A stretch of 43,991 nucleotides of DNA, counting the filler, from Jimgerdemannia flammicorona (taxonomy: Eukaryota), in the NCBI GenBank assembly GCA_003990765.1. It is 2 parts of 2 records of this genome, joined end to end, with 100 filler letters (N's around TTAATTAATTAA, not from the genome) between each part and the next. Parts side by side here need not be neighbours in the genome. Positions count along the whole stretch, not along the records: positions 22,050 to 43,991 come from RBNJ01001361.1; 1 more part is not named here. The stretch is one strand, 5' to 3'. Every line of letters begins with the position of its first letter. Within the stretch, counting starts at the first letter, position 1. Both the position numbers and the translations under genes were made by a program. Under the pieces are notes generated by a model. The model was not told the DNA's origin. It ran no database searches and saw nothing but the letters and a program-made list of their open reading frames with translations. Below, in pieces: positions 1-41,042 of the stretch.

Positions 1-289
1 CACGAAATTTCCTAATTGGGTATTGTCTGCAGCGATACGCCAATTCAACTAAGCTGGTCTTAGTTTCTCGAACTTCCTGAAATACGGAAAATCCTGAACA
101 TCCAGAACTAGTCCGAAAAAGGACTTTGGTTGAGACGTCAACCCAATCTTGAAATCAATAAGCGTAGAGGACGTACTCCATACGAAATTGATCTTGACCA
201 TAAGAAAACGGTCTTCCAGAATATCCAGAACTTCCAGAAAACCCTTCCAGAACTACGTAACGGTTACCCTAAAAAGCAACCCTCTTACA
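1..289 (+). mobile_element. 3' end of a family-E TG...CA element (runs off window start)
   Basis: Near-identical to the reverse complement of 38938-39226; homology stops exactly at ...CCCTCTTACA (289), the E terminus; retains many CpGs. Confidence 0.85.
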
Positions 290-2333: not shown

Positions 2334-3388
2334 TGTAAGTGCACAACCTCCAAGCTACTGAAATTACACATCCCCCTCTGAACAAGCCACTGAAATCATA
2401 TATAACCTTTGAACAAATCCAGAAATCACATGCAAGATCATGAAGCTGAGTCAAACTAAAGTCACAGTACACAAAGCTGAGTCAAACTAAAGTCACAGTG
2501 CACAAAGCTGAGTCAATATGAAGTCATGGAACACAAGATTTACACAAATAGAATCTTACTAATTAGAACAAAATGTATATATACTGAGTATTGAGACATG
2601 TTGAAACAGAGAACTAAAACAAACTAAACAAATAACCCCAACTCCTGAATATACACAAACATAACCACTGAGATCTACAACTACATCTGTACTGATATTT
2701 GGAATATCATTATCAACTGAGCCACACCCCTTATGAATATCTATAGCCTAGTATCCCTCTACTTCATGGAAGTCTGATGGAATGCCCTGAACATGCTTAG
2801 TAAGACCCACTGAATTGGACAAATCTCAAGCTACTACCAGATCAGCCACCTCCTAGAAGTCATAGTTGAATACTACCATGATAAGACATTACCCAGATAT
2901 CTTAACATCAGAAACTCATTGCCTATAAACATTGAGAACTCTTCTATGAGTATAGTACTGTTATTTTCCATCTCTGAGTTACTACTACCAAAATGGTGAC
3001 TACTCTGTCTTATGGCCAAATAGATGATATGATATAAGAACTCAACTATAAGTATCTCGAGTATGTGCAGACCACAGATAGAACCTTCTCACACCCTGAT
3101 GACCATATCCTGCAAATGTCTCAAGTTGGATATACCATAAAGGACATCTATGATATAATCCGATTTGATGAAGATGAAGCAGATGACAATAATCCCACTA
3201 ATGCTGATATGACCTCCAGCCAAGGATCCCTACCAACCCTGATTACTCTGCCAACCTTGCCAATGAACTTACAATAGTTCATAACTACCTACAAGACTTA
3301 TTGAGACAATAACTACTGGCATAAGTACTAACCTGCATTTATGCCTGATTACTTCAACTACAATGAAGAGACTGGAGAATACAATCTG
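2334..3388 (+). mobile_element. 5' half of a family-E element (3'-truncated), with pseudo-ORF from 2661
   Basis: Starts TGTAAGTGCACAACCTC, exactly where homology to the minus-strand copy at 40983 starts; ORF track 3065-3277 matches 40074-40784 protein (SSQGSLPTLITLPTLP). Confidence 0.85.
2443..2530 (+). repeat. 31-bp tandem repeat (~3 units) in E 5' region, each with TGAGTCA
   Basis: AAGCTGAGTCAAACTAAAGTCACAGT(A/G)CACA units starting 2443, 2474 and partial 2505; about 2 units in the 40983 copy. Confidence 0.8.
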
Positions 3389-5032: not shown

Positions 5033-5504
5033 TGTAACATAGTGGATGCTTACTCTTGAAAGTATGTCGGATTTCTGTATCTTGAAAACTTGATCTTCTC
5101 TGACTCTCGCAGAGTCTTTTGAAGTTGCAGGGGAGGGTGGGTGAGTTCGAAGTGTATCTGCCCACAGGCTTACTAGTTCCTTTGCTATCTCTTTGCTTTG
5201 AACTATTTCGATCTGAGGTTTATTCACTCAAAGATACTGGGTTATTTATACAAGTTTGCTGGCTATGAGATGGTTACTGGGTTATGTGGCTAAGTTATGA
5301 GTCATTTAACACTTTGTGAAATATTTTGCCAGTTGTGAAATACTATACTATATCGAGAAGCTCGATCTCGCACTTTGCGAAATATTTAGCAAGTGGCAAA
5401 ATTGAGGACTACTAACTATGTGGCTATACTACTTTGGGACTGGGTGTGATCAAGTGTCTGTTCCCTATTTCCTTCTTCCGAATCTGGCTATACATACCAT
5501 CATA
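5033..5504 (-). repeat. 3' LTR of Gypsy A
   Basis: Direct repeat of 11234-11699; abuts PPT; has TATAAATA and AATAAA on minus strand. Confidence 0.93.
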
Positions 5505-5541
5505 ACTTCCCCCTGAATAGATGATCTTGCCCCTGAAGCAT

Positions 5542-6003
5542 CTATTTAAACTCCCAGGCTTCAATGGTCTGTAAGGTCTTGTATTGTACGATTTGTTGCA
5601 TTACTGTTTCCCAATGGTATCACCTGACTCAGTTGAAGTCTGAGGGAGTCACTCCTCGCAGGTGGGCTAGTGCTGGTTCATCTTCACAGAATAGCTTGTG
5701 GATTCTCTTAGCAATGATGATCTGGGAATAGGAGAGCTGGCATTCTGCGATCCAATTTTCTTTGGTCATTTCTGGGTCTTGGTTGAGTACTTGGCCAAGT
5801 TTGAAGTACTCTTGAAATTTGTTTCAATGCTGATAGGCCTTGAAGTGTGAGATTCGAGAGAGATGAGTCTGCACAATGCTTTGGATACTGTCATAAGACG
5901 CCTCTATGGTCAGAGGCTTGGTGGTGCACCATTGTCTCTCGATGGCTCTTTGGACAGTGCTAGTGATCTTGAGTACCATTGCAGTACTTTTGTTAATGGC
6001 CAT
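5542..6003 (-). pseudogene. ORF3 of Gypsy A (153 codons, unknown helical protein, env position)
   Basis: MAINKSTAMVLKITSTVQRAIERQWC...QEYFKLGQVL...IAKRIHKLFCEDEPALAHLRGVTP...EAWEFK; 3 internal TGA; same length and position as B ORF3. Confidence 0.8.
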
Positions 6004-9000
6004 GATATTTCTTGAGTTGGTTTCGGTAAATGGTGGTGGAGATTATTGTATCTGAGCGTTTTTATAGAAAAGGTGGTCTCTTTTATATCTTGCACCAGGT
6101 AAGGTCCTTCACACTTGGGCTTCAGTTTTCATGACCATGAAGCTTCTACCATATTCCGATACACTAGGACTTTATCTCCTATCTTGATAATCTCCAAGGG
6201 TTTGTGGATCTTTTCTGCATTCCTCTATTGTAGTGTCTGCACCATGGTTATGTAATCCTCAGCCTTCTTTCTGATTTGGTGTAGTCTCCATATTTCCATG
6301 TCTACATGTTTCTATACAGCTCTCATGATAGGGTTCTCCGAGAACATTCTTCTCTGAACACAGCATTTCTCGAGGGATAAAGTGGGTACTTTGTGATCAG
6401 ATATCCTGGAGAGTGGATAATGCTATTGGTAGATAGTGATCCCAGTTTTCATAGTTATCACAGATCTTGATGATAACATTCTTGAGGGTCTTGTTGGTCC
6501 TTTCTGCTTATCCGTTTCCTTGGGGGTAATAGGCTGTAGTCCAAATGTGCTGGATCTTGTACTTCTTGTAGAGAACCTCAAAGAGCTGGTTCATGAATTC
6601 TGTTCCTCTATCTGTAGTTACTTGTGTTGGGTCTTGAACTGGCAGATGATTTCTTTATAGAGGAAATTGGTGATTAACTGTGCATTGGCTTCCTTAAGAG
6701 GTCCTGCTTCTATCCACTTCGTAAAAAGGTCTATGATGACAATGATATATCAGTTACCAGTCAGGGCCAAGGGTAGAGGGCCGATTACATCCATTAATAT
6801 GTGGGCAAATAGTACTGGTTCTATGCATACTGATCCTGGGGCCTGGTTTCATTAGTCTTGTTTCTGTTTCTGGTATTTGTCTCAGGTTTTGATGAATTGT
6901 CTGATATCTTCCTTCATCCCTGGCCACCATATTGTTCTTCTTGCCTTGTTATATGTATTCGTTCCTCCTAGATAGCCAAGTTCATGTACTGATTTCATTG
7001 CTTGCTCCTTCTTGTGTTCTGGAATGACTAGTAGTTTTTCTTTCTTCAGTATTTCTCCATCAGTTTCGAATTGTTTCCATGTTCTGTTGATAATCATTTG
7101 TGTCCATTCTTTCAGATGTTGGGGCATCTTTTACTGTCCCAGGTATGTGATAATTCCATAGTAGAGCTCCTTATTCATGATTGATTTGTTGGTTGGAGGT
7201 AGTTTGGAGTGTCCATGAGAGAGCATCTGCATTGGAATTTGTTCTTCTAGGGCAGTGTACAATGGTTACATTGTAGGCTTGTAGCTTCATTATCCATCTG
7301 GCATAGATTCCTTTGGGTTGTCCAGTTATCAGTAGCCAGGTGAGAGCTGAGTGGTCCATTTGGATGGTGAAGTGTCTTCCAGCCAAGTAGTAGTGGAACT
7401 TTTCTATGGCCCAGATGACTGCGAGGCATTCCAACTTGTAGGATTCATAATCTTTTTCAGCTCCTCAGGTTCTGCAGCTGAGGTATGCAATGACATACTC
7501 TACTTTATCTTTCTTTTGAGCTAGGACTGCTCCTAGTCTTTGTGGACTTGCATCAGTCTGTAGGATGAATTCTTGAGTCCAGTCAGGTCTTCGGAGGATA
7601 GGTATCTGGGTCAGTCTGACCTTGAGTTCATCAAATGCTTTTTGTTGTCTGCCGGTCCACTGGAACTTGGTATCCTTCTTGTTAAGTTCGTAGATTGGTC
7701 CCGCAATATTAGAAAATCCTCTAATATATCTGCGATAATAGGAGGCAAGTCCCATGAAGGCTTGGGCTTCTGTAACAGTGGTGGGTCTTGGGTATGCTGC
7801 CACTTCTTGTATCTTGAGTGGGTCTGTGTGTGTTCCATCTCAGTTGATGATGTGGCTAAGATAGGAGATCTCAATTTCTGCGAATTTGTATTTTTTGGGC
7901 TTGATATATAGGCCATGCTTTCTCAGTCTTTCCATTATCTGCTGGATGTGCTGTAGGTGTTCTTCTGGTATCTGGCTGTAGATGATTACATCATCAACAT
8001 AGACCATTATCCATCTTCCCATGTCATAGTGGAAGATTTTGTTCATCATTCACTGGAAACTTGCTGGTGCATTGCACATTCCAAATGGCATTCATAGGTA
8101 GACGTGGGTTCCATCTGGGATGACAAAAGTTGACTTTTCACTTACCATGTCTGTGAGTCTGATTTGGTGGAATCCTGAGTATAAGTCCAAAGTGCTGTAG
8201 TACAGTGCTTCATCTCCCAGTGTTATGAGGATGTCATTGATGAGGGGCAGTGGTTGGCGATCCTTTTTGGTAACCATGTTGAGCTTTCTGTAGTCAACAC
8301 AGAGTCTTGGGGCAAATTCTCCAGGCTTGCTGCCCTTTTTTAGTACTAGTACAATAGGTGAGGACCAGAGGCTGCTGGCTTCTTTAATGAAGCCAGCTTC
8401 TTCCATCTGCTTGATTTCTTCTCTGAGCCATTCTTGGTAGGATGGCAGGACAGGTCTTGCCTTCTGATAAATTGGTTTGGTGTTTCCAGTATCTACTTCA
8501 TGATAGTAGTGTGGGGTCTTTCCTTTGATATCCTTGAAATCTGTGGCAAGGATATCTTCGAATTCGTGGAGTATTTTCTTGAGTTCTTTCTTGAGTGGAA
8601 ATTCATTTCTGATGGTGTAGCTGTGCTTGCTTGTGTTTTCCTCCTTCTTATGCTCAAGTTTGGTGATCTTGGTACTGGTGAATACTCCTCTTCCTGTGGA
8701 TCCAAATCCTTTCTTTCCTCTTTTCATTTCCTCCAGATTCTTGACTTCTATAATCCTTGGTTGTATGATCAGAAAGATCAACATTTGCGTCAATCAGTCC
8801 TTCTTCTTGACTGGAAATGGGATTGTAGGATTGTGATTCCTAGCAATGAGTAGAATTTCTCCAGTATAGTCTGAATCGATGACTCCTCCTTTGATTGTGA
8901 TTTCACTTCTAGCCAGGCTGCTTCTTGTCTTGAGAATCCCAATATGATCCTTTGGGATGGTCATTTCCAGTCCAGTTGTAAGTAGGGTGGTTGTCTGGGG

Positions 9001-11113
9001 TTCCAGTACAGTCTCTTCTACTGTAGCGATGTCCATTCTGGCTGTATTTTCTGACTTATATTCTGGCAAGACTGCATCAGAGTGGATCTTTCGAATCTTG
9101 ACCTTGATTTCTTCTTTATCATCACTGTCCTCTAGGAGGGCTGGTGGTTCATCATATTCCTCCTTCTCTTCTTCTCTGATCTGTTTTTCGAGAGCTTTCT
9201 ACCTTCTTTCCTGGTGGATCTTCTTGATTCCAATGGTGCACTGGTAGCAATCATTGACATGCTCCATACAGTACATCTTGATCCCATGAGGACAGACTCC
9301 TTGTGGGGTATAACCTTCTGTGATCTTCTTGCACCATTCTTCTTTACTTATCCATCCAACTTTCTTCCTCTTTGGAGTAGTCACCATATAAGCTTCCTCT
9401 TGCTCACTCTCTTCTTCCTCTATGTTGGGCAGGACTCCTTTATTGACATTGATGGGAATTCGTACCTTCTGTCCCCAGTAGGTGATCTGCATCTTCTGGG
9501 CATTGAGATCGATTACTGCCTTGGCTTTGTGAAGCCATTGATTGCCGATGAGGATGTCATAGTTGGTGGCATTGGTTACAATTACATCTACTGGGATGGT
9601 TGCTCCTCCAATCTTGATAGAAACATCTCAGATCTTTCCCAGAGGTGTGGCTCTTGTGCCATTGACTGTGACGAACACCAGCTTAGTTGCTTCTTCCACA
9701 TCCCAACCTAGGTGGTCCACTGCCTTCTTGCTGAGGAGACATCCTTCTGCTCCCATATCAATGATGGCTTCAAAAATTCTATCTTCAATTTGGCATGTTG
9801 CATAAGCAGAGGTTTTGCAATTGTCCTCACTTTCTTCTCCTGAGTCCTCTTGAATGTTATTGGCCTCAGTTATCTTCCATCCTTGTTCCTTAGTTGTTTT
9901 GGCAAGTCCAAACCTCATTTTCTGTCTGAATGTTGGGATTTCTGCGAGCTGACCAAAGGTTGCATTGATTGGTCTTGCAAAGCTTCTTTTCTTTTTCTCC
10001 TTCACTGTCTGGAGTGGTTCCTCAGATGATATCTTGAACTGCTTGCTCCAGCTCCATATCTTGGTCCATCTCTTTGCCTTGGCTTTCTGTGGCAGTTTCT
10101 ATCTGCTTTTCCACTGGGCTCTTCTTGGGTCTTCCTGGTAGTCTCTTGAAGGGTTCTTTGCGAACATCCTTCTTGGTGGTCTGAGCAGAATAGGCCTCCC
10201 ATTCCTCTTCATCAAATTCTCTGATTTCTTCAAAGGTGATTGTATTGGCCTGCTCCTTGATTCGTATAGCATTGCTTGGTTGAGCCTTATGCTTGGTTTC
10301 GCTCATGCATTCATAGGAGTAGTGGCCTTCTTCTCCACAGCTGTAGCAGGTACCTTTCTTCTTATCTGAGGTGGTGGCAAACTTCTGAACAGAGCAGTGG
10401 TCTCTTCCTCAAATTTCCTTTACCACATCTCCCAGGTGGGCAGTCATTTCGGCAAACCTTTTGGTGAGTTCCTCCATAGGGTCACTGTTCTTTTACTGCT
10501 CTATAGCTTTTGGCTGAGGTGTGTTTCAATTGATCATTATGGTAGGGATCACACTGGTTGCCTTGGGTGCTTCGATTTTGACTCCCATGACCCTTTCCAT
10601 TGTATGGTCTTGTGGATGTCTGGCTATCCAGTATCACTGAGCATAGGTGACCTTCTGTGGCAGATCCAGAATCACTGGTGATGAGCAGATGACCATGGCT
10701 ATTTCTGGATGGACTCCTTTCATGAAGGTTGCTTTGGCTACTTGATCTCGGATAGCAGTAGCATAATCTGCATGGATTATCTGATATTGAATTCTGGTAT
10801 AGAATGTGTTTGGATCCTCGCTCATTCCTTGGCATATTATATTGAGCTGATCTTTCAGGGCTTGCTTGATCTCGTCTGTATAATATGTATTTTGGAGCCA
10901 GGTCTTCTGTGCTGTCAGTATAGCATCAGCATCATTTCCTGCATGGGTTGCAGCTGTGAATGCTGCTCTGGCAGGACCTTGTAGGCTGAAGGGCATGAGG
11001 GCTACTTGCTGTGCTGCTGTCAGGGTCCTTACAGCAGCATACTGCTTGAAATTATCAATGAAGGTGATGATTGATTCATCTGAGATATATCCATGGAATA
11101 CTGGTGGTCTCAT
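5993..11113 (-). pseudogene. gag-pol of Gypsy A (Gag, CCHC knuckle, protease, dUTPase, RT, RNase H, integrase)
   Basis: MRPPVFHG gag start; CYSCGEEGHYSYEC; IIDMGA (decayed DTG); RLCVDYRKLN, LDLYSGFHQI, YVDD; LQTDAS, ECLAVIWA; integrase core and GPY motif; many stops/frameshifts. Confidence 0.93.
8692..9105 (-). pseudogene. dut: dUTPase domain inside pol of Gypsy A, between protease and RT
   Basis: Trimeric dUTPase motifs: A(R/G)MDI, RSSLA, GGVIDSDYTGEI, (R)LTQML, RGKKGFGSTG. Confidence 0.92.
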
Positions 11114-11233
11114 ATCTATCTTGTCTGGGTATTGGGGCTCGGTTTGTATGGTTGTTCAGGTAGTGGCGGTTGTTCATTGTTCAGCTTGAAAGTGAGGGAT
11201 TCGTCTTGAATCACCAGCCAATGGGCACCAAGT

Positions 11234-11699
11234 TGTAACATAGCAGATGCTTACTCTTGAAAGTACATTAGATTTCTGTATCTTGAAAACTTGATCTTCT
11301 CTGACTCTCGCAGAGTCTCTTGAAGTTGTAGGGGAGGGTGGGTGAGTTCAAAGTGTATCTGCCTGCAGGATTACTAGTTTCTTTGCTATCTCTTTGCTTT
11401 GAACTATTTCGATCTGAGGTTTATTCATTTGAAGATACTGGGTTATTTATACAAGTTTTAGCTATGAGATAGTTACTGGGTTACGTGGCTAAGTTATGAG
11501 TCATTTAACACTTTGCAAAATATTTCACTAGTTGTGAAATGCTATACTATATCAAGAAGCTTGATCTCGCACTTTGTGAAATATTTAGCAAGTGGCGAAA
11601 TCGAGGACTGCTAAATATGTGGCTATACTACTTTGGGACTGGGTGCAATCAAGTGTCTGTTCCCTATTTCCTTCTTCCGAATCTGGCTATACCATCACA
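11234..11699 (-). repeat. 5' LTR of Gypsy A
   Basis: TGTGATGG...TGTTACA on minus strand, followed after 3 nt by the PBS. Confidence 0.93.
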
Positions 11700-23263: not shown

Positions 23264-23544
23264 TATCTCTTTGACTGTTTTGCACCTATATTTAGAGGCA
23301 ATATTTTAAAAGTTTATAACTTTTAAAATTATAATAGCTTTTAAAAAAAAATTTACCAATAATTTTTTATATAATAATTCTATCTTTGGTAAAAATTTTA
23401 TAAAAAAAAATATATATATATTTTTAAATAAATTGAGATATATTTTTAACAGAAAAACAATGTTTCAAAAAATCATTTTTTTCAAACTTTAATTTGTCTG
23501 CTAAATGATTTTAAAAGATGATCTTATCTATAGTCAAAAGGATA
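23264..23544. mobile_element. Decayed MITE-like element, copy 2
   Basis: TATCTCTTTGACT...AGTCAAAAGGATA; internal sequence shared with copy 1 (TTTTAAAAGATGATCTTATCTATAGTCAAA). Confidence 0.6.
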
Positions 23545-24479
23545 TAGATATCTATATTAAATTAATTTTTTCTGAAATTACAGCTATTCTATCTATAAAT
23601 AAAGCCTAAAGAGTATATTTACACCTATATCAATTATATCAATAATTTAGTAAATTAAGTGAATTTTCTCAGTATATTTGTAGATTATATTAATAATAAA
23701 GATAAAGTCATTATACTTATAAGAGAGCTCCTAAATATATATAATATAGTAGTAATAGCTATATATAAGAGCAGAAGACTTATAGACTATACCTATATAA
23801 TTATAAGCCTTATGAATAAGAAAATATATCTAGGAAATACTAATAAAGAAAATGATAAAAGAGTGTTATAAATATCCTATAGATATAGTAGTAGCAAATA
23901 AGATTAAAGCTAATATAGTCAATAAACTAAGACTAAAAAGAGTAAATCCAAACTCAAAATTAATATAATTATAGCCAGTAAGATAAGTTTGAGAGCTATT
24001 ACAGATACTATAGCTAGTATAAATATAAGAAAAGTAATTATTATCATAGAGAAAATAAGATAAAGATAGTACAAAAAATAAGTATAGAAAGAGTAATCAA
24101 TATATAAATAAATGAGAAAATAGTAAAAAAAATATAATAATATAAATATTGCAAAAAATGATAATAATAGTGATTTATTCTTTACTCAAGCAATATCTTT
24201 ATAAATAGATAATAATAATATAATTACAAAAACTACCATTAGTACTAGTTCTACTAGTATAAGATCTATAAGTAGTTCTATTACCAAATCTAGTAACAAC
24301 TGGTTATCTATAACTGGTTGAAAAAATACTTTTAGATTAATAAAAAGTAGTAATATCAGTATCTTCTGTAGTATGAGAACTATTAATATCTTCAATAGTT
24401 TTAATGATAAATTAAAATTATTTTATACTGTTTTATATTTCTGAGTCTAAGAAACTCAGAATATATAATAGAAATCAAA

Positions 24480-24884: not shown

Positions 24885-25348
24885 TGTGACAGCTGATCCG
24901 AATTAGTAACATGAAATAGGGGAATTAGACATTTGATCACAGTACCTAAATCTGATTCCCAATATAGTATAGCCACATAAATAGCAGTCATATTCTGCAA
25001 AGTACAGAAACTTTAACATTTGCAAAGATTTAGGAGATGTTAGAATCTTTGCAATCAGTGAAATCTTAGCAAATGTTAAAAGATTCAGTACTTGTGAAAT
25101 GAGCCATTACTTAGCCACCTTATAGCTAGCAAACTTGTATAAATAACCCAGCATCTTAGAATGAATAAACCTCAGATCAAAATAGTTCAAAGCAAAGAGA
25201 TAGCAAAGGAACTAGTAAGTCTGTGGACAGATATACTTCGAATTCATCCACCCCTGCATCCCAAGGACTCCGAGGAGTCAGAGAAGATCAAGTATTTAAG
25301 ATATAGAAATCTGACATACTTTCAAGAGTAAGTGTCCACTATGTTACA
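24885..25348 (+). repeat. 5' LTR of Gypsy B
   Basis: TGTGACAG...TGTTACA; TATAAATA at 25138, AATAAA at 25164. Confidence 0.93.
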
Positions 25349-25468
25349 ACTTGGTGCCCATTGGCTGGTGATTCAAGATGAATCTCTCACTTTCAAGCTG
25401 AATAACGAACAACCACCACTACCCAAGCAACCACACAAACCGAGCCACAATACCCAGACAAAATAGAT

Positions 25469-28400
25469 ATGAGACCACCAGTATTCCATAGGTATACCTC
25501 AGATGAATCAATCATTACCTTCATTGATGATTTCAAACAGTATGCTGCTGTAAGGACCCTGACAGCAGCACAGCAAGTAGCCCTCATGCCCTTCAGTCTA
25601 TGAGGTCCTGCCAGAGCAGCATTCATAGCTGCAACCCATACAGGAAATGATGCTGATGCTATACTGACAGCACAGAAGACCTGGCTCCAAAATACATATT
25701 ATACAGATGAGATCAAGCAAGCCCTGAAGGATCAGCTCAATACAATATGCTAAGGAATAAGTGAGGATCCAAACACATTCTATACCAGAATTTGATATTA
25801 GATAATCCTCATGGATTATGCTGCTGCTATCCGAGATCAAGTAGCTGAAGCAACCTTCATGAAAGGAGTTCACCCAGAGATAGCCATGGCCATCCATTCA
25901 TCACCAGTAGTCTTGGATCTGCCACAGAAGGTCACCTATGCTCAGCAATATTGGACAGCCAGACACCCACAAGACCATACAATGGAAAGAGTCACAGGAG
26001 TCAGAATCGAAACACCCAAGGCAACCAGTGTGATCCCTACTATAATGATCAATCGAAACACACCTCAGTCAAAAACTACAGAGCAGCAAAAGAACAGTGA
26101 CCCTATGGAAGAACTTGCCAAGAGATTCGCTGAAATGACCGCCCACCTGGGAGATGTGATAAAAGAAATCCAAGGAAGAAACTGCTGCCCAGTTCAGAAG
26201 TTTGTTGCCACCTTGGACAAGAAGAAAGGTACCTGCTATACCTGTGGAGAAGAAGGCCACTACTCCTATGAATGCATGAGCAAAACCAAGCACAAGGCTC
26301 AACCAAGCAATGCTATACAAAACAAAGAGCAAGCCAATACAATTACCTTCGAGGAAATTGGAGATTCTGATAAAGAAGAATGGGAGGCCTATCTTGCTCA
26401 GACTATTAAGAAGGATGTTTGCAAGGAACCCTACAAGAGACCACCAGGAAGACCCAAGAAGAACTCAGTAGAAAAGCAGATGGAAATGGCCACCAAAAGC
26501 CAAGCCAAAGAGATGGACCAAGATATGGAGCTGGAGCAAGCAGTTCAAGATATTATCTGAGGAACTACCCCAGCCAGTGAAGGAGAAAAAGAAAAGAAAC
26601 TTTGCAAGACCAAGACTTTCAAGTACAATATCTTCAAGGACCTTAGCCAATAAAAGGTCAATGTAACCTTTGGTCAGCTCGCAGAAATCCCAACATTCAG
26701 ACAATAAATGAGGTTTGGACTTGCTGAAACAACCAAGGAGCAAGGATGGAAGATAACTGAGGCCAATAATATTCAAGAGGACTCAGGAGAAGAAAGTGAA
26801 GACAATCGCAAAACCTCTGCCTATGCAATATGCCAAATCGAAGATAGAGTCTTTGAAGTCATCATCGATACTGGAGCAGGAGGATGTCTCCTCAGCAAGA
26901 AAGCAGCAGACCGCCTAGGCTGGGAAGTTGAAGAAGCAATCAAGTTGGTTTTTATCACAGCAGATGGCACAAGAGCCACCCCTCTGGGAAAGATCCGAGA
27001 AGTCCCCATCAAGATTGGAGGAGCAACTATCCCAGTAGATATAATTGTAACCAATGCCACCAACTATGACATCCTCATCAGCAATCAATGGCTCCACAAA
27101 GCCAGGGCAGTAATCAATCTTAATGCCCAGAAGATGCAAATCACCTACCAGGGACAGAAGATATGAATTCCCATCAATGTCAACAAAGGAGTCTTGCCTG
27201 ATATAGAGGAAGAAGAGAGCGAGCAAGAGGAAGCTTATATGGTGACTACTCTGAAGAAAGTTGGATGGACGAATGAAGAAGAATGGTGTAAGAAGATCGC
27301 AGAAGGCTATATACCACAAGGAGTCTGTTCTCATGGGATCAAGATGTACTGTATGGAGCATATCAATGACTACTACCAGTGCACTATCAGAATCAAGAAA
27401 ATCCACCAGGAAAGAAGACAGAAAGCTCTTAAAAAACAGGTCAGAGAAGAGAAGGAGGAGAAAGATGATGAACCACCAGCCCTCCTGGAGAATAGTGATG
27501 ATGAAGAAAAAATTAAGGTCAAGATTCGAAGGACCCACCCTGATGCAGTCCTGCCAGAATATAAGTCAGAAAATGCAGCTGGAATAGACATCACCATAGT
27601 AAAAGCTGTACTAGAACTCCAAACAACCACCCTACTCACAACTGGACTGGAGATGACTATCTCAAAGACCATGTCAGGATCCTCAAGACAAGAAGCAGCC
27701 TGGCCAGAAGTGAAATTACGATTGAAGAAGAAGTCATCGATTCTGACTATACTGGAGAAATCCTACTCATTGCTAGGAATCACAATCTTACAATCTTATT
27801 CCTGATCAAGAAGAAGGACTGATTGGCACAGATGTTGATCTTTCCAATCCTACAACCAAGGATCATAGAAGTCAAGAATTTGGAGAAAATGAAAAGAGGA
27901 AAGAAAGGATTCGGATACACAGGAAGAGGAGTATTCACCAGTACCAAGATCACTGAACTGGAGCATAAGAAGGAGGAAATCACAAACAAGCACAGTTACA
28001 CTATTGGAAATGAATTTCCACTCAAGGAGGAACTCAAGAAAATACTCTACAAATTCGAGGATGTCCTTGTGATGGATTTCAAGGACATCAAGGGAAAGAC
28101 CCCACACTACTATCATGAGGTAGATACTGGAGATACTGAACCAATTTACCAGAAGGCAAGACCTATCCCACCAGCCTACCAAGAATAGCTCAGAGAAGAA
28201 ATCAAGCAGATGGAAGAAGCCAGTATTATTAAAGAAGCCAGCAGCCCCTGGTCTTCACCAGTTGTACTAGTCCCAAAAAAAGGAAGCAAACCTGGAGAAT
28301 TTGCCCCAAGACTCTATGTCAACTACAGAAAGCTCAATGCAGTTACCAAGAAGGATCACCAACCACTGCCCCTCATCAGTGACATCCTTATAATACTGGG

Positions 28401-30639
28401 AGATGAAGCACAGTACTACAGCACTCTGGACTTATACTCAGGATTCCACCAAATCGGACTCACAGAAATGGCAAGTGAAAAGTCAGCCTTCATCACCCCA
28501 GATGGAACCTACATCTACCTACGAATGCTATTTAGGATATGCAATACACTAGCAAGCTTTCAGCAAATGATGAATAAAATCTTCTGCTATGATATGGGAA
28601 GATGGATGATGGTCTATGTCAATGACATAGTCATCTACAGCAAGACACCTGAGGAACACCTGCAGTACATATAGCAGATAATAGAAAGACTGAGAAAGCA
28701 TGGCCTGTATATCAAGTCCAAGAAATGCAAATTTGCGGAAGTTGAGATCTCCTACCTTGGCCATATTATCAATCAAGATGGAATGCACACAGACCCCCTC
28801 AAGATACAAGCAGTAACAGCATACCCAAGGCCCACCACTGTTATAGAAGCCCAAGCCTTCATAGGACTTGCCTCCTACTATTGCAGATTTATCAGAGGAT
28901 TCTCCAATATTGCAGACCCAATCTATGAACTCAACAAGAAGGACACTAAATTCAACTGGACCAGTAGACAACAAAAGCATTTGATGAACTCAAGGTCAGA
29001 CTGACCCAGGCACCCATCCTCAGATGACCCAATTGGACCCAAGAGTTTATCCTTCAGACAGACACAAGTATACAGAGACTAGGAGTAGTTCTAGCTCAAA
29101 AGGAAGACAAAAAAGAGTATGTCATTGCATACTTAAGCTGAGGAACCTGAGGAGCTGAAAAAGAATATGAATTCTACAAGTTGGAATGCCTCACAGTCAT
29201 CTGGGCTGTGGAAAAGTTCCACTACTATCTGGCTGGAAGACACTTCACCATTCAGACAGATCACTCAGCTCTCACCTGGCTACTGACAACTGGACAACCC
29301 AAAGGAATCTATGCCAGATGGATAATGAAGTTACAAGCCTATGACATAACCATTGTACACTGTCCTGGAAGAACAAATTCCAATGCAGATACTCTCTCAC
29401 AGACACCTCGAAAAACCTCCAACCAATAAATCAATTATGAATAAGGAGCTCTACTATGGAATCATCACATATCTAGGACAGTGAAAGATGCCCCAACATC
29501 TGGAAGAATAGATGCAAATGATTATCAACAGAACATGGAAACAATTCGAAACTGATAGACAAACACTGAAGAAAGGAAAACTACTAGTCATTCCAGAACA
29601 CAAGAAGGAGCAAGCAATGAAATCAGTACATGAACTTGGCCATCTAGGAGGAATGAATACATACAACAAAGCAAGAAGAACAATATGGTGGCCAGGAATG
29701 GAGAAAGATATCAGACAATTTGTCAAAACCTGCGACAAATGCCAGAAACAGAAACAAGACCAACAAAACCAAGCCCCAGAATCAGCACATATAAAACCAG
29801 TACCATTTGCCCACATAGCAATAGATGTAATTGGCCCTCTACCCTTGACCCTGGTAGGTAACCAATATATCATTGTCATCATAGACCTTTTTATGAAGTG
29901 GATAGAAGCAGGACCCCTCAAGGAAGCCAATGCACAGTCAATCACTGATTTCTTCTACAAAGAAATCATCTGCTGGTTCAAGACCCCAATGCAAGTAACT
30001 ACAGATAGAGGAACAGAATTTGTGAACCAGTTCTTTAAGGTTCTCTACAAGAAGTACAAGATCCAGCAAATTTGGACTACAGCCTATCACCCTCAAGGAA
30101 ATGGACAAGCAGAAAGAACCAACAAGACCCTCAAGAATGTTATTGCCAAGATCTGTGATAACTATGAAAACTGGGATCACTATCTGCCAATAGCATTATC
30201 TGCTCTCCGAGACATCAGATCACAAAGTACCCACTTTACCCCTTGAGAAATGCTGTTTGGAGAAGAAAGTTCTCAAGAAACCCTATTGTCCAATGGGGAT
30301 GCTGTATGGAAACATGTGGATGGAGAAATGCGGAGACTACACCAAATCAGGAAGAAGGCTGAGGATTACATAATGAAGGCACAGGCACTACAATGGAAGA
30401 ATGCAGAAAAAACCCACAAACCCCTGGAGATTATCAAGATAGGAGACAAAGTCCTGATGTATCGGAACATGGTAGAAGCCTCATGGTCACGAAAACTGGA
30501 GCCTAAGTGGGAAGGACCTTACCTTGTACAAGATATAAAAGGAACCACCTTTTGGCTACGAAAACTCTCAGGCACAATCATCCTCACTACTTTCCACCAA
30601 AACTGACTCAAGAAGTATCATGACCAGTTAATGAAATAA
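25469..30639 (+). pseudogene. gag-pol of Gypsy B
   Basis: CYTCGEEGHYSYEC, IIDTGAG, dUTPase, LDLYSGFHQI, YVND (decayed YVDD), ECLTVIWA, H-x3-H...CDKC, IDVIGP, TDRGTEF, NGQAERTN, KWEGPY; gag and protease in one frame; no chromodomain seen. Confidence 0.93.
27517..27925 (+). pseudogene. dut: dUTPase domain inside pol of Gypsy B (frameshifted)
   Basis: AGIDI, VIDSDYTGEI (shifted frame), AQML, RGKKGFGYTG. Confidence 0.9.
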
Positions 30640-31081
30640 TACTGCTGCCCTCAGAATTACTAGCATGGCCCAGCGAGCCATTGAAAGACAGTAGTGTTCT
30701 ACTGAGCCACCAACAATGGAAGAATTCTTTGACAGCATCCAGAGTATAGTGCAAACATACTTGTCACAAATCTCACATTTCAAGACCTACCAGAACTGAA
30801 CCGAGTTCCAGAAATACTTCAAGTTGGGACAGCTACTGAATTCAAGACTGAAGATGGGAAAAGAAGACTGGATCAGAGAATGTTAGCTCTCCTACATTCA
30901 GATCACAATTGCAAAAAGAGTGCACAAGTTATTCAAAGATGATGAGTCAGCCTTAGCCCACTTCTGAGGAGTAACCCCAGAAGACTTTGGATATATCAAG
31001 AGACAATATTAGAAGGACGTAATGACACAAATCACACAGTATAAGGAAATACAAATTGTAGAAGCCTGGGAATTTGAGTGA
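30620..31081 (+). pseudogene. ORF3 of Gypsy B (153 codons)
   Basis: ATG overlaps pol end as in A; QRAIERQ...DSIQSIVQT...QKYFKLGQLL...IAKRVHKLF..DESALAHF.GVTP...EAWEFE; internal stops are consistent with C>T/G>A changes. Confidence 0.8.
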
Positions 31082-31122
31082 ATAGGATGCTCCAGAGACG
31101 AATCACCTATTCAGGAGGAAGA

Positions 31123-31586
31123 TGTGATGGCTGATCTGAATTAGTAACATGAAACAGAGGAATTAGACATTTGATCACGGTACCTGAATCTGATTCCCAA
31201 TATAGTATAGCCACATAAATAGCAGTCATATTCTGCAAAGTACAGAAACTTTAACATTTGCAAAGATTTAGGAGATATTAGAATCTTTGTAATTAGTAAA
31301 ATCTTAGCAGATGTTAAAAGATTCAGCACTTGCAAAATGAGCCATTACTTAGCCACCTTATAGCTAGCAAACTTGTATAAATAACCCAGCATCCTAGAGT
31401 GAATAAACCTCAGATTGAAATAGTTCAAAGCAAAGAGATAGTAAAGGAACTAGTAAGTCTGCAGGCAGATACACTTCAAACTCATCCACCCCTGCATCCC
31501 AAGGACTCCAAGGGGTCAGAGAAGATCAAGTATTCAAGATACAGAAATCTGACATACTTTCAAGAGTAAGCATCTGCTATGTTACA
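31123..31586 (+). repeat. 3' LTR of Gypsy B
   Basis: Direct repeat of 24885-25348, preceded by PPT. Confidence 0.93.
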
Positions 31587-35299: not shown

Positions 35300-36832
35300 T
35301 AGAGCTATAGCTAGGAGTAGAGATAAGACTACTGTTAGCTATATAACTGAAGATCTGGAAAAAAAAAATCCAGATATAACTACTGATAGTAGAACTAAGC
35401 AGATAGGATGCAGAGAGAAGGGAGATCTGACTGATAATATAATAGGCCTGACAGTGGCTCTATTACTTAAAAAATCAATCTTAGAATTTGTTATCACATT
35501 ATACTTCTGGAGACTAGTGGTAATAGCAAAGATAGTACTGAGACTAATCTTAAAGCAGATGGCTGGAATGGCTTCAGTGAAGTTCTTAAGGGGGAGAGAG
35601 TGGAGGTGGACTTTGAGGAGGCAGAGTTCTTGAAGACAGCCTTGGAGACTAGGTTGGTGATTAGAGAGATAGTGATACCAATAATATACTGCTTGAGGTG
35701 AGACCCCAGAGTGGTGCAGCTCTTGGTAAAAGAGATATCTATAGTAATAATGATTGAGATAAGAAGGAGAGTGGAAGCAGTGATAGCAGAATATGGCAAT
35801 ATAATAGATATTGGATTCAGAGTCTGGGAGGGGATGATGTTCTAGACTGAAGATATGGATGGCTATCTCAGGCTTACTGAGTGAAAGACTACTAAGAAGA
35901 CTTATAACTGACTCTCAGTGATGATGTAGAGAGTATTTATTTGTAAGATAACAAGGATAAAGAGTAGTGAGAAGAAGAAGAATCTATTAAAGGTCCTGAA
36001 GGAGCTTAGTAGAGTAGTAGAGTATAGAGCAGCAGTATAGTAGGCTTATATAGTATTAATATACTTAGAGATAGTGAATGAGAAGAGAATATATATAGAC
36101 AAAGTATTGTGAAAGAAGGCTCAGAGGTACAAGAGATAGTAGAACCTGTTGGTGAGTTTGGCAAATAGGCTTGCAGCATTAAATATGAGCACTTGGGCAG
36201 ATAATAGAGCTAGAGGATTACTGGGAGGTTGCTAAGCATGTGGTGGAAAGTCAAGAGACTAGAGATCAGTGGCTCTATGATGAAGGTATACTTGAAGTTC
36301 AGAAAGAGGAAGAGAAGCTAGAGGTGAGGGCTGATGCTCAGAACAAAAAGAGTATGGAGGATATAGAGATAAGAAGTATATATAGAATTCAGTTTAGAGT
36401 ATCTGATATAGTAAAGAAGAGACAGATGGTTGGTATTATAGAGGATGGACTACAGAATGTCCTAAAGAAAGAGTGGGATGAGTTAGTAAGTATAAGTGTA
36501 GATATTATTATTAGGGGGGGGGGGGAGACTATTGATCCCTAGTGGGAAGTATATTAGAGACTTTTGATAGATAATTAAGATGATGGATGACTTGGCTGCT
36601 GAGGAGCTGGAAGAGGTAAACTTGAGAGTAATCAGTGAGGAATAATGGGTATGAGTGTTGAGAGATAACAGACTAATAGAAAAACTAAAGGCTGAGATAC
36701 TAGCTATCGTTTTAGAGAAGGAAGATTATAAGGTTAATAAGATAAAAGAGACTGAATTAATGATTATAGCTAGATATTAAGCTACTTTCTAATCTAAACA
36801 GCAGCAGGATTTATAACTTTGGCAAGAGATAT
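35300..36832 (+). mobile_element. LINE ORF1 region (diverged subfamily), left of element C
   Basis: Aligns with reverse complement of ~15930-17470 (TGCTTGAGGTGAGACCCCAGAGT); continues at 41043; left boundary approximate. Confidence 0.75.
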
Positions 36833-37038
36833 TGTGACATGCGTAATTGACAACAGAGTACTGGTGACTGCTAAGATCAGATGACATAATGGCATGATAA
36901 TCGAATAGACAACCTGACCCATTAGGTGATCATCCCAAAAGGAGCAATGATAATCTGAGCCAAAAGGAAGACTATGTTATTTAAAGAACCATACTCTGCC
37001 TCAGGAATCAGCACCAAAGAACAAGTACCCACCACACA

Positions 37039-37965
37039 ATGCCTCCTATCCACTGCCCCAACCAGACCTCCCGCCACTCTTCCCCCTTGCCTAGCCCAAA
37101 GACTCTAATCCTTGAAGCTATCAAGAAGGCTATTTGGCACCCAGACACCTCTGAACATCTGAACTTCTACACCAAGGACCTTGGACACTTCATCAATTAC
37201 CAGTATATAATGACCCAACAGCTCAAAGATACCACTGAATGAATGACCCTCTGGCATGATTATGAAATTGGACACCACCTTTGTAATGAAACCCAAGAAG
37301 ACAACCAAGAAGACCTCATTGCCGAAATGTTAACCACCAGCTAGCTAATCAAGAGAGCCCTCTGTGTCTACCAAATCTTCTGCCATATTCCCTGAGCTAT
37401 AGCACACTTACAAGGAGTGACTGCTGGAAGTCTTGCCTGTCTCTCAACTGAAGTTGCAGACTGGATAGAATCAGAAGTAGCCAACTCTATTGGTAGTAAC
37501 TGGGTCACTGTAGGAAGCCAACAAACTGAGCCCACTCAACCAGGCTTTCACACTACTCTACTCTGAGACAACCATCAAGAGCACCTAATGAGTTTCATAG
37601 AAATCTTTGAAGGACCACCCATTACCATTACAATACCTGTTGGAGCAACCCCAACTACTCACCACCCTGTCAGCTACAATTTGCACCTCATCATTTGGGA
37701 ACCAAATCAAGAAGTCTCAGAAGTCTCTACCAATACAGAAACTGAAGGATCTAAGGAAGAAGAAGAGGAGGAACAAAGAATCTACTAATCCTCTGTCCAC
37801 CTTCAAGCAGTCCAAGGGTTGGAGAATGTCATTGAAGATGATTGGCCACAATTCTACCCCCTCACCTCCTGGCCAGCACTCCCACTCTTTGAAGAATAGA
37901 ATGAAGAAGTCACAACCCAGCAAGATGATTGGTTCACTGATGAAGGGTACTTTACCATTCAGTGA
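37039..37965 (+). pseudogene. Element C ORF (~308 codons; ORF3-like domain plus acidic tail)
   Basis: Single frame with 6 internal stops consistent with C>T/G>A changes; HDYEIGHHL...ALCVYQIFCHIP.AIAHLQGVT resembles ORF3 EYFKLGQVL...AKRIHKLFCEDEPALAHLRGVT. Confidence 0.7.
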
Positions 37966-38209
37966 TCCAACATCCGTTTCCTCAGTCTGGTCAGCCAATA
38001 TTTATCAGCAAGTCAGTAACATCCGTTTCCAGTGATATCACCCCCAACAACCGAATCCAGCACTGGTACTCACCTTATCCCAATTCAGTGATCTAATGTC
38101 TGTTTCCTCAGTCCAGTCAGCCAATGTTTGTCAGCAAGTCAGCAACATCCATTTTCAGCGATACTACTCACAACATCCTTATCCAGCACTAGCACTCATC
38201 TTATCCCAA
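37958..38209 (+). repeat. Two 126-bp tandem units upstream of the element C TATA box
   Basis: Units start TTCAGTGATC at 37958 and 38084, with a third start TTCGGTG at 38210. Confidence 0.85.
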
Positions 38210-38283
38210 TTCGGTGCAAACAATTGTCACACCCATATTCAGCAATTAAACCACCACAACGTAGTATACCTTAGCCCCCCCCC

Positions 38284-38337
38284 ATAGCTAGCAGATTTGT
38301 ATAAATAACCCTATATCTTAGAGTGAATAAACCTCAG
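38284..38337 (+). promoter_or_regulatory. LTR-type TATA plus polyadenylation block shared with A/B LTRs
   Basis: TAGCTAGCAGATTTGTATAAATAACCCTATATCTTAGAGTGAATAAACCTCAG vs B LTR TAGCTAGCAAACTTGTATAAATAACCCAGCATCCTAGAGTGAATAAACCTCAG. Confidence 0.75.
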
Positions 38338-38937
38338 TTAGTTTGTGTTTAAAGTAAAAAGGATTACAGAGAAACCTCACTGCCTCCAAGAGACCGGATA
38401 AATTCTGAGAATAAGATAACTAGAGCAATGATTGCTTAAGGTTTGAGTTAAAGAATTTTCTCTTGCCACAGAAAACATTCAAGATTCGCCGCTAAGAAAA
38501 GCCACACGAAAAGTCATTCAGTTCAGTTTAAGACCTGCTGCTAAAGGAAAGTCATACAAAAAACCACCAACCGCCACTGAGATCCCACCAGCCCAACTGT
38601 CATGCATTCGACCCAACTGTCATACATTCGGAGCCAACCGCCATGCATTCGAGACACGCCATTCAAGTGTTAAGACCCCAGCCAAGGAATCCAAGGATAC
38701 TTAGCTTAGGAAAGCCAGCACCATCATCATTCACCTAACAAGCCAGACGGACGAGTTACCCTTTACCCGCTGCGCCACGAACTGTATATATTCAAGAAGT
38801 AATTCACTGCTAGGAAAATTCATCAACCACTAAACAACTGAGCCTTCACCATACGAATCGGATGAACCGATCATATAACCATTGACCCGCAACCATTGCA
38901 AATGCACACAGTCATATACCACATGCTCCACTAAGTG

Positions 38938-40983
38938 TATAAGAGGGTTACTTTTTAGGGTAACCATTACGTAGTTCTGGAAAGGTTTTCTGGATATTCT
39001 GGATGTTCTGGAAGACCGTTTTCTTATGGTCAAGATCAATATTGTATGGAGTACGTCCTCTATACTTATTGATTTCAAGATCGGGTTGACGTCTCAACCA
39101 AAGTCCTTTTCTGGACTAGTTCTGGATATTCAGGATTTTCTGTATTTCAGGAAGTTCAAGAAACTAAGACCAGCTTAGTTGAATTGGCGTATCGCTGTAG
39201 ACAATACCCAATTAGGAAATTTCGTGATGGGGTTAGGAGTGGGACCTAACAGGGAGCAAGAGCGGATTTACTTAAGAGTGGTTTGTGGGTTATGGAATAG
39301 GTTTATTTGCTATTCATGATATTGCTATACTAAGAGTATTTGTGTGAAGGGATATTGTGGGGAAGTATTCAGGAATGTTCTTGTGTGTTCAAGTCTGTTC
39401 AAGTCTGAGATTCTGAGGTCTGAGAGAGGGAGTATTTATACTGGTGAGGGGCTATCTGGACTATGCTAAATATGGATGTAGCACTAAGTGCTTTGCTGAG
39501 TCGGAATGCAGTCCCGTAGTACAAGTGTGATCTGACATGTCAAGAGATCATCTGACTGCTGAGTCAGTTCACAGTCACATCGTACAAGGCTAATCTAACT
39601 ATACTATGACTGCTAGGCTATTTATGGGTTTAGGCACTGTCTGGGTAGTCCTCGATGACATCACCATCGATTGCATCATCTCTGATAAAGTAGTCATCTA
39701 GAAAGAGTGGTTCGCGGATTACTTCTCCTTGTTCGCTGAGGTAATAATACATTGGAACTTCATCACCATTCCACAGGATAGCATCATCCGTCTCATATGC
39801 TGGATAAGGTGTTGGTGGGCGAAGGAGGGGTGCATTGTTTTCACTTTCGTCAGATTCGCTGTCTGTATACCTTCTGTAGGTTATAACACTATGAGTCGCA
39901 GGGTTATAGTAAGCTGGTGGCTGTGGTTCATGTTGCTCACACTCAGGTGGTGGAGTGGTTGGTTTGATCTCGAGGGTTGTCTGGAGGTATAGGTTGTGTT
40001 CTCCAGTCTCTTCATTGTAGTTGAAGTAATCGGGGGTGAATGCAGATTGGTATTCATGCTAGTGGTCATTGTCTCAATAAGTCTCGTATGTAGTTATGAA
40101 CTGTTGTAAGTTTATTGGCAGAGTTGGTAGAGTGATCAGAGTTGGCAGAGATCCTTGGCTAGAGGTCATGTTGGCATCAGAGGGATCATTGTCTTCTGCT
40201 TCATCTTCATCGAAGTGGATTATATTGTAGATGTCCTTCATAGCGTATCCAACTTGGGGCATTTGCAGGATTTGATCATTGGGGTGTGGGAAGGTTTTGT
40301 CTGTGGTTTCGATGTACTTGAGGTACTTGTGGTTGAGTTCTTGTATCATGTCATCAATTTGGCCATAGGACAGGGTAGCAACCATTTTGCTGGTAGTAAC
40401 TCGGAGGCGGGAAATAATGGTACTGTACTCATAGAAGAGTTCTTGATGTTTGCAGGCAATGAGCTTCTGGTGTTGAGACATCTGGGTAATGTCTGTATCG
40501 TGGTGGTGTTCGACCATGTCTTCCAGGAGGCGGCCGATCTGGTAGTAGCTTGAGATTTGTCCGATTCGGTGGGCCTCGCTAAGCATGTTCAGAGCATTCC
40601 ATTGGGCTTCCACAAAGTAGAGGGGTGCTAGGCTATGGATATTCATGAGGGGCAGAGGGAGTGTGGCTCGGTTGACAATGGCATTCCAAATGTCAGCACA
40701 GATATGGTTGTAGATCTCAGTGGTCATATTTGTGTGTTTGGAAGTTGTAGTTGTTGTTTGTTTTGATTCTCTGATTTGACACATCTCGGTGCTCAGTATA
40801 TATGTATTTAGTCCTGATTGGTAAGATTCTGTTTGTGTAAATCTTGTATTCCGTGACTTTGTATTGACTCAGCTTTGTGTGCTGTGACTTCAGTTTGACT
40901 TAGCTTCGTGATCAAGCAGATAATTTCCAGATTTGTTCAGAGGTTGCGTGTAATTTCGGTGGCTTAGAGGTTGTGTACTTACA
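38938..40983 (-). mobile_element. Element E: complete 2046-bp TG...CA element with one ORF, nested in C
   Basis: Minus strand TGTAAG...CTTA(T/C)A; 5-bp TSD AAGTG (38933-38937/40984-40988); both ends confirmed by independent copies (2334 start; 289 end); TATAAATA at 39433-39440 and AATAAA at 39302-39307 downstream of ORF. Confidence 0.85.
39630..40727 (-). pseudogene. Element E ORF (365 codons; ORF3-like N-domain, acidic/Pro-rich tail)
   Basis: MTTEIYNH...SSYYQIGRLL...QKLIACKHQELFYEYSTIISRLRVTT; only two internal stops (TGA 40074-76; TAG 40059-61, which is TGG in the 2334 copy), then 142 open codons to TAA 39630. Confidence 0.75.
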
Positions 40984-41042
40984 AAGTGGCACATTGAGCT
41001 GTGCTTGAAGCAACTAGAGATACAAACCACATGCCACAATAT

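Follow-up and report, generated by a model that had tools for sequence, protein, structure and literature searches.

An ORF3 accessory protein family, predicted to be all-helical, in Ty3/Gypsy-type retrotransposons and LTR-like elements of Jimgerdemannia flammicorona

The window analyzed here, a 43,991-nt stretch from the genome of Jimgerdemannia flammicorona (NCBI GenBank assembly GCA_003990765.1; positions 22,050 to 43,991 come from RBNJ01001361.1), consists of decayed mobile elements nested together. Two copies of a long terminal repeat (LTR) retrotransposon, Gypsy A, a single-copy element C and a repeated element E each hold an open reading frame (ORF) in which an earlier, sequence-only reading had seen one uncharacterised domain, described as shared by three different mobile-element families. 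Judging from profile comparisons, the shared pattern marks one real, unnamed protein family; it is predicted to be all-helical, and its genes are the ORF3 accessory gene of a dUTPase-carrying, chromodomain-less lineage of Ty3/Gypsy-type LTR retrotransposons. Taken together, this unnamed ORF3 family, the lineage anatomy as observed and a proposed role of the protein as an activator of the unique 3' region (U3) of the LTR form a picture that we favor by a modest measure. The finding is real and uncharacterised, yet less exotic than one domain spread across three element families.

The motifs on which the sequence-only reading had built its pattern were all found in place: EYFKLGQVL at 5785-5811(-) and AHLRGVT at 5647-5667(-) in Gypsy A copy 1 (A1), HDYEIGHHL at 37255-37281(+) and AHLQGVT at 37402-37422(+) in C, and SYYQIGRLL at 40524-40550(-) and SRLRVTT at 40392-40412(-) in E. 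Between the three types, protein identity is 15-25%, and BLASTP gave E-values of 2e-6 (A-C), 7e-4 (A-E) and 0.22 (C-E). Profile-profile comparison, which had been named in advance as the test that could overturn the pattern, gave significant hhalign values for A-C (7.9e-5) and C-E (9.8e-4 over 127 columns) and 0.072 for A-E, with very shallow family profiles. We also used a hidden Markov model (O-HMM) made from eight distant metagenomic members, with none of the A, C or E types and none from the window. It scored A-type proteins at 64-67 bits, E-type at 40-45 and C-type at 38-42, whereas the highest-scoring of 2000 shuffled decoys reached 11.5 bits; in a six-frame scan of the window it matched exactly five places (Table 1). 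The shuffle test and the window scan together exclude a chance resemblance of decayed low-complexity frames; the C-E BLASTP value, not significant by itself, and the A-E hhalign value could be cited in favor of chance, but the O-HMM scores and the intact relatives of each type leave it a negligible probability. At the DNA level C and E do not align (local alignment z = -0.8), as had been noted before, and neither does E align with the Gypsy A LTR (z = -0.2).

Searching 1.84 billion representative proteins with a profile built from the four window ORFs yielded 18 matches at E<=1e-3. These included intact relatives of the A type (P0004 and P0006, with the full-length 153-aa proteins P0023 and P0055 in clusters), of the E type (P0005, 128 aa) and of the C type (P0007, 200 aa, and P0008, 342 aa), and nine more distant members; overall, family members span 150-340 aa. 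Each of the 18 representatives stems from a metagenome assembly (ENA, JGI or SRC), where its contig measures 0.5-4.8 kb, and is annotated as "hypothetical protein" at most. No relatives were found in viral contigs (queries: A, C and E types, P0017 and P0014) or in genome contigs (queries: E and A types), and a word-index protein search with the E ORF among proteins of near length gave none at E<=0.01, P0005 being shorter than the length window. The description of the domain as uncharacterised also stood: at E<=0.01 neither the window ORFs nor any one of 19 members matched a Pfam family (the top stray matches, at E 0.013, were all different), and there was no significant match to accessory families (Tax, Tas/Bel, Rev, Tat, Nef, Sag, env and others). 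A sequence search of PDB gave one marginal match, to a mitoribosomal protein and outside the core (E 0.0094), and no description of this protein family was found in the literature.

Three of the window ORFs are interrupted, and reading through their stops is justified by the intact relatives and by the mutation pattern. A1, Gypsy A copy 2 (A2) and C have 12 internal stops between them. At ten of these the nearest intact relative has R (TGA from CGA), W or Q, one transition away, as expected from the C>T/G>A stops that the sequence-only reading had assumed; the other two, both in C, are ambiguous. At the three internal TGA codons of A1 ORF3, P0023 has R, and at the five internal stops of A2 ORF3, P0055 has W, R, Q, R and W. 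C>T changes between copies favor CpA (64/103 and 40/68 in two comparisons), and C>T and G>A dominate both in the old Gypsy copy at 292-1810 compared with A2 and in E copy 2 (E2) compared with E copy 1 (E1), in CpA/TpG context (G>A 35/58). CpG is strongly depleted (observed/expected 0.02-0.47). This CpA-biased C>T pattern resembles repeat-induced point mutation (RIP). In the window, A and C are present as dead copies with transition stops, and E1 is open.

Gypsy A is a Ty3/Gypsy (Metaviridae) LTR retrotransposon by its LTRs, target duplication and domain order. Its LTRs, of about 464 bp, are 92-93% identical within each element (92% for the A1 pair), have the termini TGTGA..TGTTACA and start with TGTGACAG or TGTGATGG (TGTGATGG..TGTTACA for the A1 pair). 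A2 is flanked by a 4-bp target duplication, ATAG. A sequence resembling a primer-binding site (PBS), TGGTGCCC, lies 3 nt 3' of the 5' LTR of A2; the polypurine tract (PPT), CAGGGGGAAG at 5506-5515 in A1 and AGGAGGAAGA in A2, directly precedes the 3' LTR. Pfam domains follow the order zf-CCHC, RVP_2, RVT_1, RT_RNaseH_2, and Integrase_H2C2 plus rve, giving a layout of gag (CCHC), protease (PR), dUTPase, reverse transcriptase (RT), RNaseH and integrase (IN). The dUTPase (PF00692, E 1.4e-15) lies between protease and RT, at 8794-9198(-) in A1 and at about 27400-27800(+) in A2. The C-terminal 130 aa of the integrase match SH3_Tf2-1 only (E 1.6e-4); no chromodomain (PF00385) was found at the integrase C-terminus at E<=0.01, in a decayed copy from which it may have been lost. 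The best relatives of the integrase are metagenome proteins (74% identity), and the named ones are from animals, at <=40%.

In Gypsy A the shared domain is encoded by ORF3, between pol and the PPT, where an accessory gene of a retrotransposon lineage had been proposed to lie. The A1 pol stop codon is 8 nt downstream of the ORF3 ATG (ATGGCCATTAA), and 28 nt separate the end of A1 ORF3 from the PPT. A1 ORF3 is identical to intact P0023 at 109 of 153 positions, and P0023 and P0055, the intact 153-aa relatives of the A1 and A2 variants, are identical to each other at 110 of 153. The gag-pol parts of A1 and A2 (compared over 25400-30600) agree at 89% of nucleotides in gag, 88% in PR-dUTPase, 87% in RT-RNaseH and 88% in IN, against 69% in ORF3 (30620-31085) and 80% in the LTR (31123-31586). 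ORF3 and the LTR are the quickest-diverging parts of Gypsy A, which suggests a 3' module that is co-evolving fast or recombining. Both ORF3 variants have intact relatives, and the gene is therefore retained yet fast-evolving along with the LTR.

Element E could be delimited by comparison of copies. Its 5' end (TGTAAGT; TGTAAGTAC) at 40983 is common to E1 and E2, and its 3' end (..CTCTTA(TA)CA) at 38937 is common to E1 and the tail copy at 1-287; since the flanks differ in each case, E is a TG..CA unit of 2,047 bp, and the 5' boundary of 41038 given by the sequence-only reading had to be moved to 40983. The E ORF starts 256 nt from the 5' end, and the gene lies within the 5' 1.5 kb, upstream of the element's own TATA box; on the minus strand, TATAAATA at 39440-39433 and AATAAA at 39307-39302 are recorded as motif presence only. 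A TATATA about 78 nt before the E ATG would be a candidate internal promoter. The E1 ORF agrees with metagenomic P0005 at 115 of 128 positions, and its open frame reaches back to 40868 (264 codons, 40077-40868(-)). Two stop codons stand between it and a second open frame, a TGA common to both copies and a TAG for which E2 has TGG. The ancestor may have encoded a protein of about 365 aa, or readthrough of the TGA may occur; the second frame had no Pfam match and was not similar to the C-type tails (E 0.52). E2 is frameshifted and contains stops. No terminal direct repeats were found within E. A search of sequencing runs listed one soil-metagenome DNA run (X1) and none of RNA. In X1, whose short contigs do not allow LTR and internal parts to be separated and gave no joints, E-like DNA reached a summed depth of about 900-2350 and C one of 50-190, while the unique flank at 35981-36522 had 0; by this depth E is a repeat present in high copy somewhere in soil. 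On the most economical reading, E1 would be a long, here solo, LTR with a gene in its U3.

Element C is related to Gypsy A through its promoter. A 90-nt core is homologous to positions 226-315 of the Gypsy A LTR (78% identity; local alignment score 48, shuffle mean 13.1, z = 28), from which we conclude that A and C are related lineages and not unrelated families. The C ORF consists of the shared domain, a QDN..FEGPPI region and an E-rich tail ending in QRIY*, the end agreeing with intact P0007. The limits of C are less firm than those of E: the unit runs directly into the end of E, which leaves it no defined 3' end, and the 5' end at 36833 comes from a single copy. At the end of the ORF a purine-rich run, AAGGAAGAAGAAGAGGAGGAACAAAGAA, is followed by TG at 37796, 8 nt past the stop codon. 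Searching metagenome contigs with the C-type sub-alignment gave one locus (L001), with a complete 291-aa C-type ORF, a stop codon, GGAGGGAGGAT and then TGTAATAAG. The 375 nt upstream of this ORF showed no integrase frame, and their DNA was not similar to what precedes the C ORF.

Two readings of C fit, a gene inside a long LTR or an ORF3 followed by a PPT-like run and an LTR from 37796, because the purine run and TG mirror the ORF3-PPT-LTR succession of A and L001. Under the second, C (and with less likelihood E) would be the 5'-truncated 3' end of an element, its LTR starting at about 37796 with TGTCCACC. The shared layout (AGGAGGAAGA then TGTGATGG in A, GGAGGGAGGAT then TGTAATAAG in L001) and the single copy, with no second one to support the 5' end, speak for truncation and give it a considerable chance, somewhat short of even. 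On the other side, the C start, TGTGACATG, resembles that of the A LTR (TGTGACAG or TGTGATGG), pol sequence is absent upstream of the C ORF, and metagenome depth is near zero just upstream of 36794, rising from 0.36 (36523-36793) to 85 (36794-37064) at the start of C. For E truncation is unlikely, since E1 and E2 have the same 5' end in different flanks. The proposal that the gene lies inside LTR-like units thus holds for E, a TG..CA unit with its own TATA box, and is one of two readings that fit C.

Table 1. Coordinates of the elements, open reading frames and O-HMM matches in the window.
Feature	Position	Strand	Details
Gypsy A copy 1 (A1)	5033..11699 (approximate)	-	LTRs about 5033-5504 and 11233-11699; ATAT/ATAT flanks
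A1 ORF3	5544..6003	-	153 codons; natural stop TAG 5544-5546; 3 internal TGA
Gypsy A copy 2 (A2)	24885..31586	+	LTRs 24885-25348 and 31123-31586
A2 ORF3	30635..31081	+	Natural stop TGA 31079-31081; start codon lost; 5 internal stops
Element C	36833..38936	+	Starts TGTGACATG; single copy
C ORF	37039..37788	+	249 codons; 4 internal stops
C tandem repeats	37957..38216	+	Two 126-134-nt units, 83% identical, between C ORF and TATA box
C promoter core	38270..38361	+	TATAAATA 38300-38307; AATAAA 38326-38331
E copy 1 (E1)	38937..40983	-	Discrete 2,047-bp unit, TGTAAGTAC...CTCTTATACA
E1 ORF	40074..40727	-	217 codons; ATG 40727; TGA 40074-40076; no internal stop
Second E open frame	39630..40058	-	142 aa; acidic, Pro-rich; same frame as E ORF
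E copy 2 (E2)	2340..3387 (approximate)	+	5' part only; 82% identical to E1; adjoins LINE-like fragment
Third E copy, tail	1..287	+	94% identical to E1 38940-39226; ends ..CTCTTACA, then unrelated sequence
O-HMM match A2	30734-31051	+	67 bits
O-HMM match A1	5566-5988	-	62 bits
O-HMM match C	37216-37485	+	45 bits
O-HMM match E1	40290-40649	-	38 bits
O-HMM match E2	2888-3091	+	14 bits
Partial LINE-like copies	1815-2336, 35362-36168, 42463-43678

The tandem repeats of C sit where a retroviral U3 has enhancer repeats. In L001, a 33-nt motif (GTCAGGCGGAAC..TCAGAACA) occurs at 170-202 and 1481-1513, on both sides of the ORF and 1311 nt apart; it lies near both contig ends and is too short and weak to call as a repeat unit or a binding site. 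With the boundaries of the sequence-only reading, ATAT stands on both sides (36829-36832 and 41039-41042) of the tail-to-tail pair C(+)/E(-), and could be chance in AT-rich DNA. With E1 starting at 40983, CACTT stands on each side only if the final CA is counted as flank.

The family is all-helical in its predicted structure. AlphaFold2, given a 19-sequence alignment, modeled the 153-aa A-type protein entirely as helices (2-22, 40-75, 81-88, 92-105, 109-114, 121-124 and 128-152) with a predicted local distance difference test score (pLDDT) of 86.7 and a predicted template modeling score (pTM) of 0.78. The aligned core comprises a helix with YYxIGxxL, a short helix, and the best-conserved helix, xIAxR(I/V)(H/Y)xLF, in which A and F are nearly invariant. 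A model of this core alone (the C-terminal 92 residues) had a pLDDT of 77.1, and 31 of its 50 listed VIA matches are, by title, helix-turn-helix (HTH) DNA-binding domains, including SopB/KorB, sigma region 4, LuxR-type, CENP-B and DeoR. The best listed match was SopB with DNA (Z 5.4, 80 residues aligned); SigW domain 4 with -35 DNA superposed over 50 of 53 residues (Z 4.7, root mean square deviation 3.2), and the top Foldseek row, a ParB-DNA complex, was not significant (E 6.2). Because the Z values lie under the tool's reliable level, we treat the HTH reading as a lead and not as a result. Although the predicted core superposes on domains such as ParB/SopB/KorB, sigma-70 region 4, LuxR-type and CENP-B at these sub-threshold values, it has no sequence profile match to HTH domains, which also lack the long flanking helices and acidic tail of the ORF3 family.

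Several members end in acidic/hydrophobic stretches, the longer ones carrying acidic tails, and in 7 of 16 members the net charge, taken over the whole protein without splitting core and tail, lies between -11 and -27. None of 17 members has a membrane segment (maximum 19-residue Kyte-Doolittle hydropathy <=1.14), and the protein, soluble in its model, is therefore not env-like. In the ESM Atlas the best match of E1 reached 0.83, below lead level, and that of P0023 reached 0.94, in unnamed clusters only, with structure rows at template modeling (TM) scores <0.5. A predicted complex of two copies of P0023 scored 0.16 and 0.17 against a mark of 0.32, which is evidence neither way.

Retroviruses keep regulatory genes at or in the 3' LTR, among them foamy-virus Tas/Bel1, human T-lymphotropic virus (HTLV) Tax, mouse mammary tumor virus (MMTV) sag, in U3, and human immunodeficiency virus (HIV) nef, which overlaps U3. 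Foamy-virus Tas binds DNA and, through an acidic activation domain, activates its own LTR; in MMTV the long LTR holds an entire ORF within U3. Like these, ORF3 is a small accessory gene at the 3' end, beside U3 or, as proposed for E, within it; unlike a homologue, it has no sequence or fold similarity to the retroviral regulators (Pfam, BFVD), and the host here is not a vertebrate. By this analogy the ORF3 protein might be a DNA-binding activator of its own element's U3, an idea that we regard as possible and doubtful. The three-helix, HTH-like core would bind DNA, and the variable acidic/hydrophobic C-terminal tail would activate transcription from the element's own U3. If the LTR boundary shifted to a point upstream of the gene, in E and perhaps in C, each of the two LTRs would receive a copy of it, and so would solo LTRs. 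Such a role would explain the joint divergence of ORF3 and LTR. In its widest form, the idea would be that LTR retrotransposons of soil eukaryotes encode a sequence-specific activator, that in some families the gene lies in U3 beside its target promoter, and that activation is family-specific; every LTR, thousands of solo LTRs included, would then carry a copy of the regulator, and regulator and promoter would co-evolve quickly. This wider form we consider unlikely.

A number of points weigh against the activator role and the anatomy proposed with it. The likeness to Tas and Tax is one of analogy. For the full-length model, Foldseek returned no PDB row at E<=1e-3, the best VIA Z was 4.6 and the best BFVD E was 0.61. 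All fold matches are weak (Z<=5.4), and a Z below 8 may mean a mere common helical arrangement; small three-helix bundles easily match HTH domains. The isoelectric point (pI) of 4.2-6.6 in 14 of 16 members is unusual for a DNA binder. For the fast divergence of ORF3 and LTR, recombination or a host arms race would be an equally good explanation. E and C are putative LTRs: in the window, no pairs of either were found around a gag-pol with a PBS, and their target duplications are not clear. The O-HMM test, finally, is not fully independent, since its eight members came from a profile that contained A, C and E.

Among other roles, that of a host-directed factor, which would either counter silencing (by RNAi, DNA methylation or RIP-like mutation) or tether integration, is the one that an arms race would predict from ORF3 being the most divergent part of Gypsy A (69% vs 87-89%). 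The elements are under heavy C>T mutation at CpA and CpG, the mostly acidic proteins would suit protein-protein contacts, and an integrase C-terminus with SH3_Tf2-1 only and no chromodomain would leave room for a tether. Given that no similarity to a known silencing suppressor or tethering domain was found, and that this role leaves the conserved basic helix and the HTH-like matches unexplained, we think it has only a small chance of being right. A protein acting on RNA, whether in export or stabilization as Rev and Rex do or as a cofactor of packaging or translation, with RNA bound by the helical core, would share its 3'-end position with retroviral post-transcriptional regulators. The all-helical prediction with a basic conserved helix is compatible with it, and the tight overlap of pol and ORF3 hints at special expression control; but no arginine-rich motif and no known RNA-binding family was found, and the fold matches are to DNA-binding and not RNA-binding domains, so that this role seems quite improbable.

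A further alternative concerns descent rather than function, namely that three unrelated element families captured the domain independently by modular exchange. The failure of E DNA to align with either the A LTR or C and the low protein identity between types are what such exchange would leave, and there is precedent in the ORF3 types shared among retroelement groups described in part of PMC5408684. Against it stand the promoter core common to C and the Gypsy A LTR, the TGT start of all units, the ACA end of A and E, and TATA and AATAAA motifs in LTR-like positions; pol of another class is not linked to C or E in the window, and vertical descent with fast divergence accounts for the data. We rate independent capture as rather improbable, and with it the "three different mobile-element families" of the sequence-only reading give way to related Gypsy-type lineages as the preferred account.

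To our knowledge, accessory genes of LTR retrotransposons outside animals and plants have received almost no study. Extra ORFs as such are a known kind in LTR retrotransposons; what is new is this family of proteins and, in E, the putative placement of its gene within U3. Fungal Ty3/Gypsy elements with extra ORFs of unknown function, and basidiomycete Gypsy elements with a dUTPase between PR and RT, are on record (PMC2864245; Novikova et al., 2010). In the portion of that paper considered here the extra ORF is given no sequence family, fold or function, so the likeness is one of description only, and the elements are largely chromoviruses, in contrast to Gypsy A, which shows no chromodomain. 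The portion of PMC5408684 (Rodriguez, Kenefick, and Arkhipova, 2017) considered here describes bdelloid rotifer elements that, like Gypsy A, are LTR retrotransposons with a dUTPase and a third ORF, and ORF3 types shared between retroelement groups. Those ORF3s are env-like or encode a GDSL esterase or a DEDDy exonuclease, whereas the present ORF3 is small, helical and of no known family; and their carriers are different retroelement groups, whereas those in the window look like relatives.

The family now has a profile, a confident all-helical model and diverse intact environmental members, and the position of its gene varies, before the PPT or within a 2-kb LTR-like unit. Should the protein be a DNA-binding activator of the LTR of its element, a simple retrotransposon would possess a regulatory gene in the style of retroviruses, a counterpart in function of foamy-virus Tas or HTLV Tax outside retroviruses, which would offer a handle on how such elements escape silencing. 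If not, it would still serve as a marker for annotating the lineage in genomes of soil eukaryotes and in metatranscriptomes.

No host genes were recognised in the 44-kb window. A region of 6 kb resembling a long interspersed nuclear element (LINE), at 12001-18000, has a GC skew of -0.34 to -0.56 per kb on the plus strand and a CpG observed/expected ratio of 0.02; its coding (minus) strand is very C-poor, as if from strand-biased mutation, and a protein search with the LINE-like ORF found no relatives. Broken frames with reverse-transcriptase-like motifs (e.g., ..VLPKVYKG..) at 20200-21700(-) gave nothing in a Pfam search and probably derive from a decayed retroelement of yet another class. In the old Gypsy copy at 292-1810, GC content is down to 26%. 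Runs of 44 N occupy 21950-21993 and 22006-22049, and the stretch at 21950-23600 is extremely AT-rich (GC 7.9% in 22001-23000), with direct repeats spaced about 720 nt apart.

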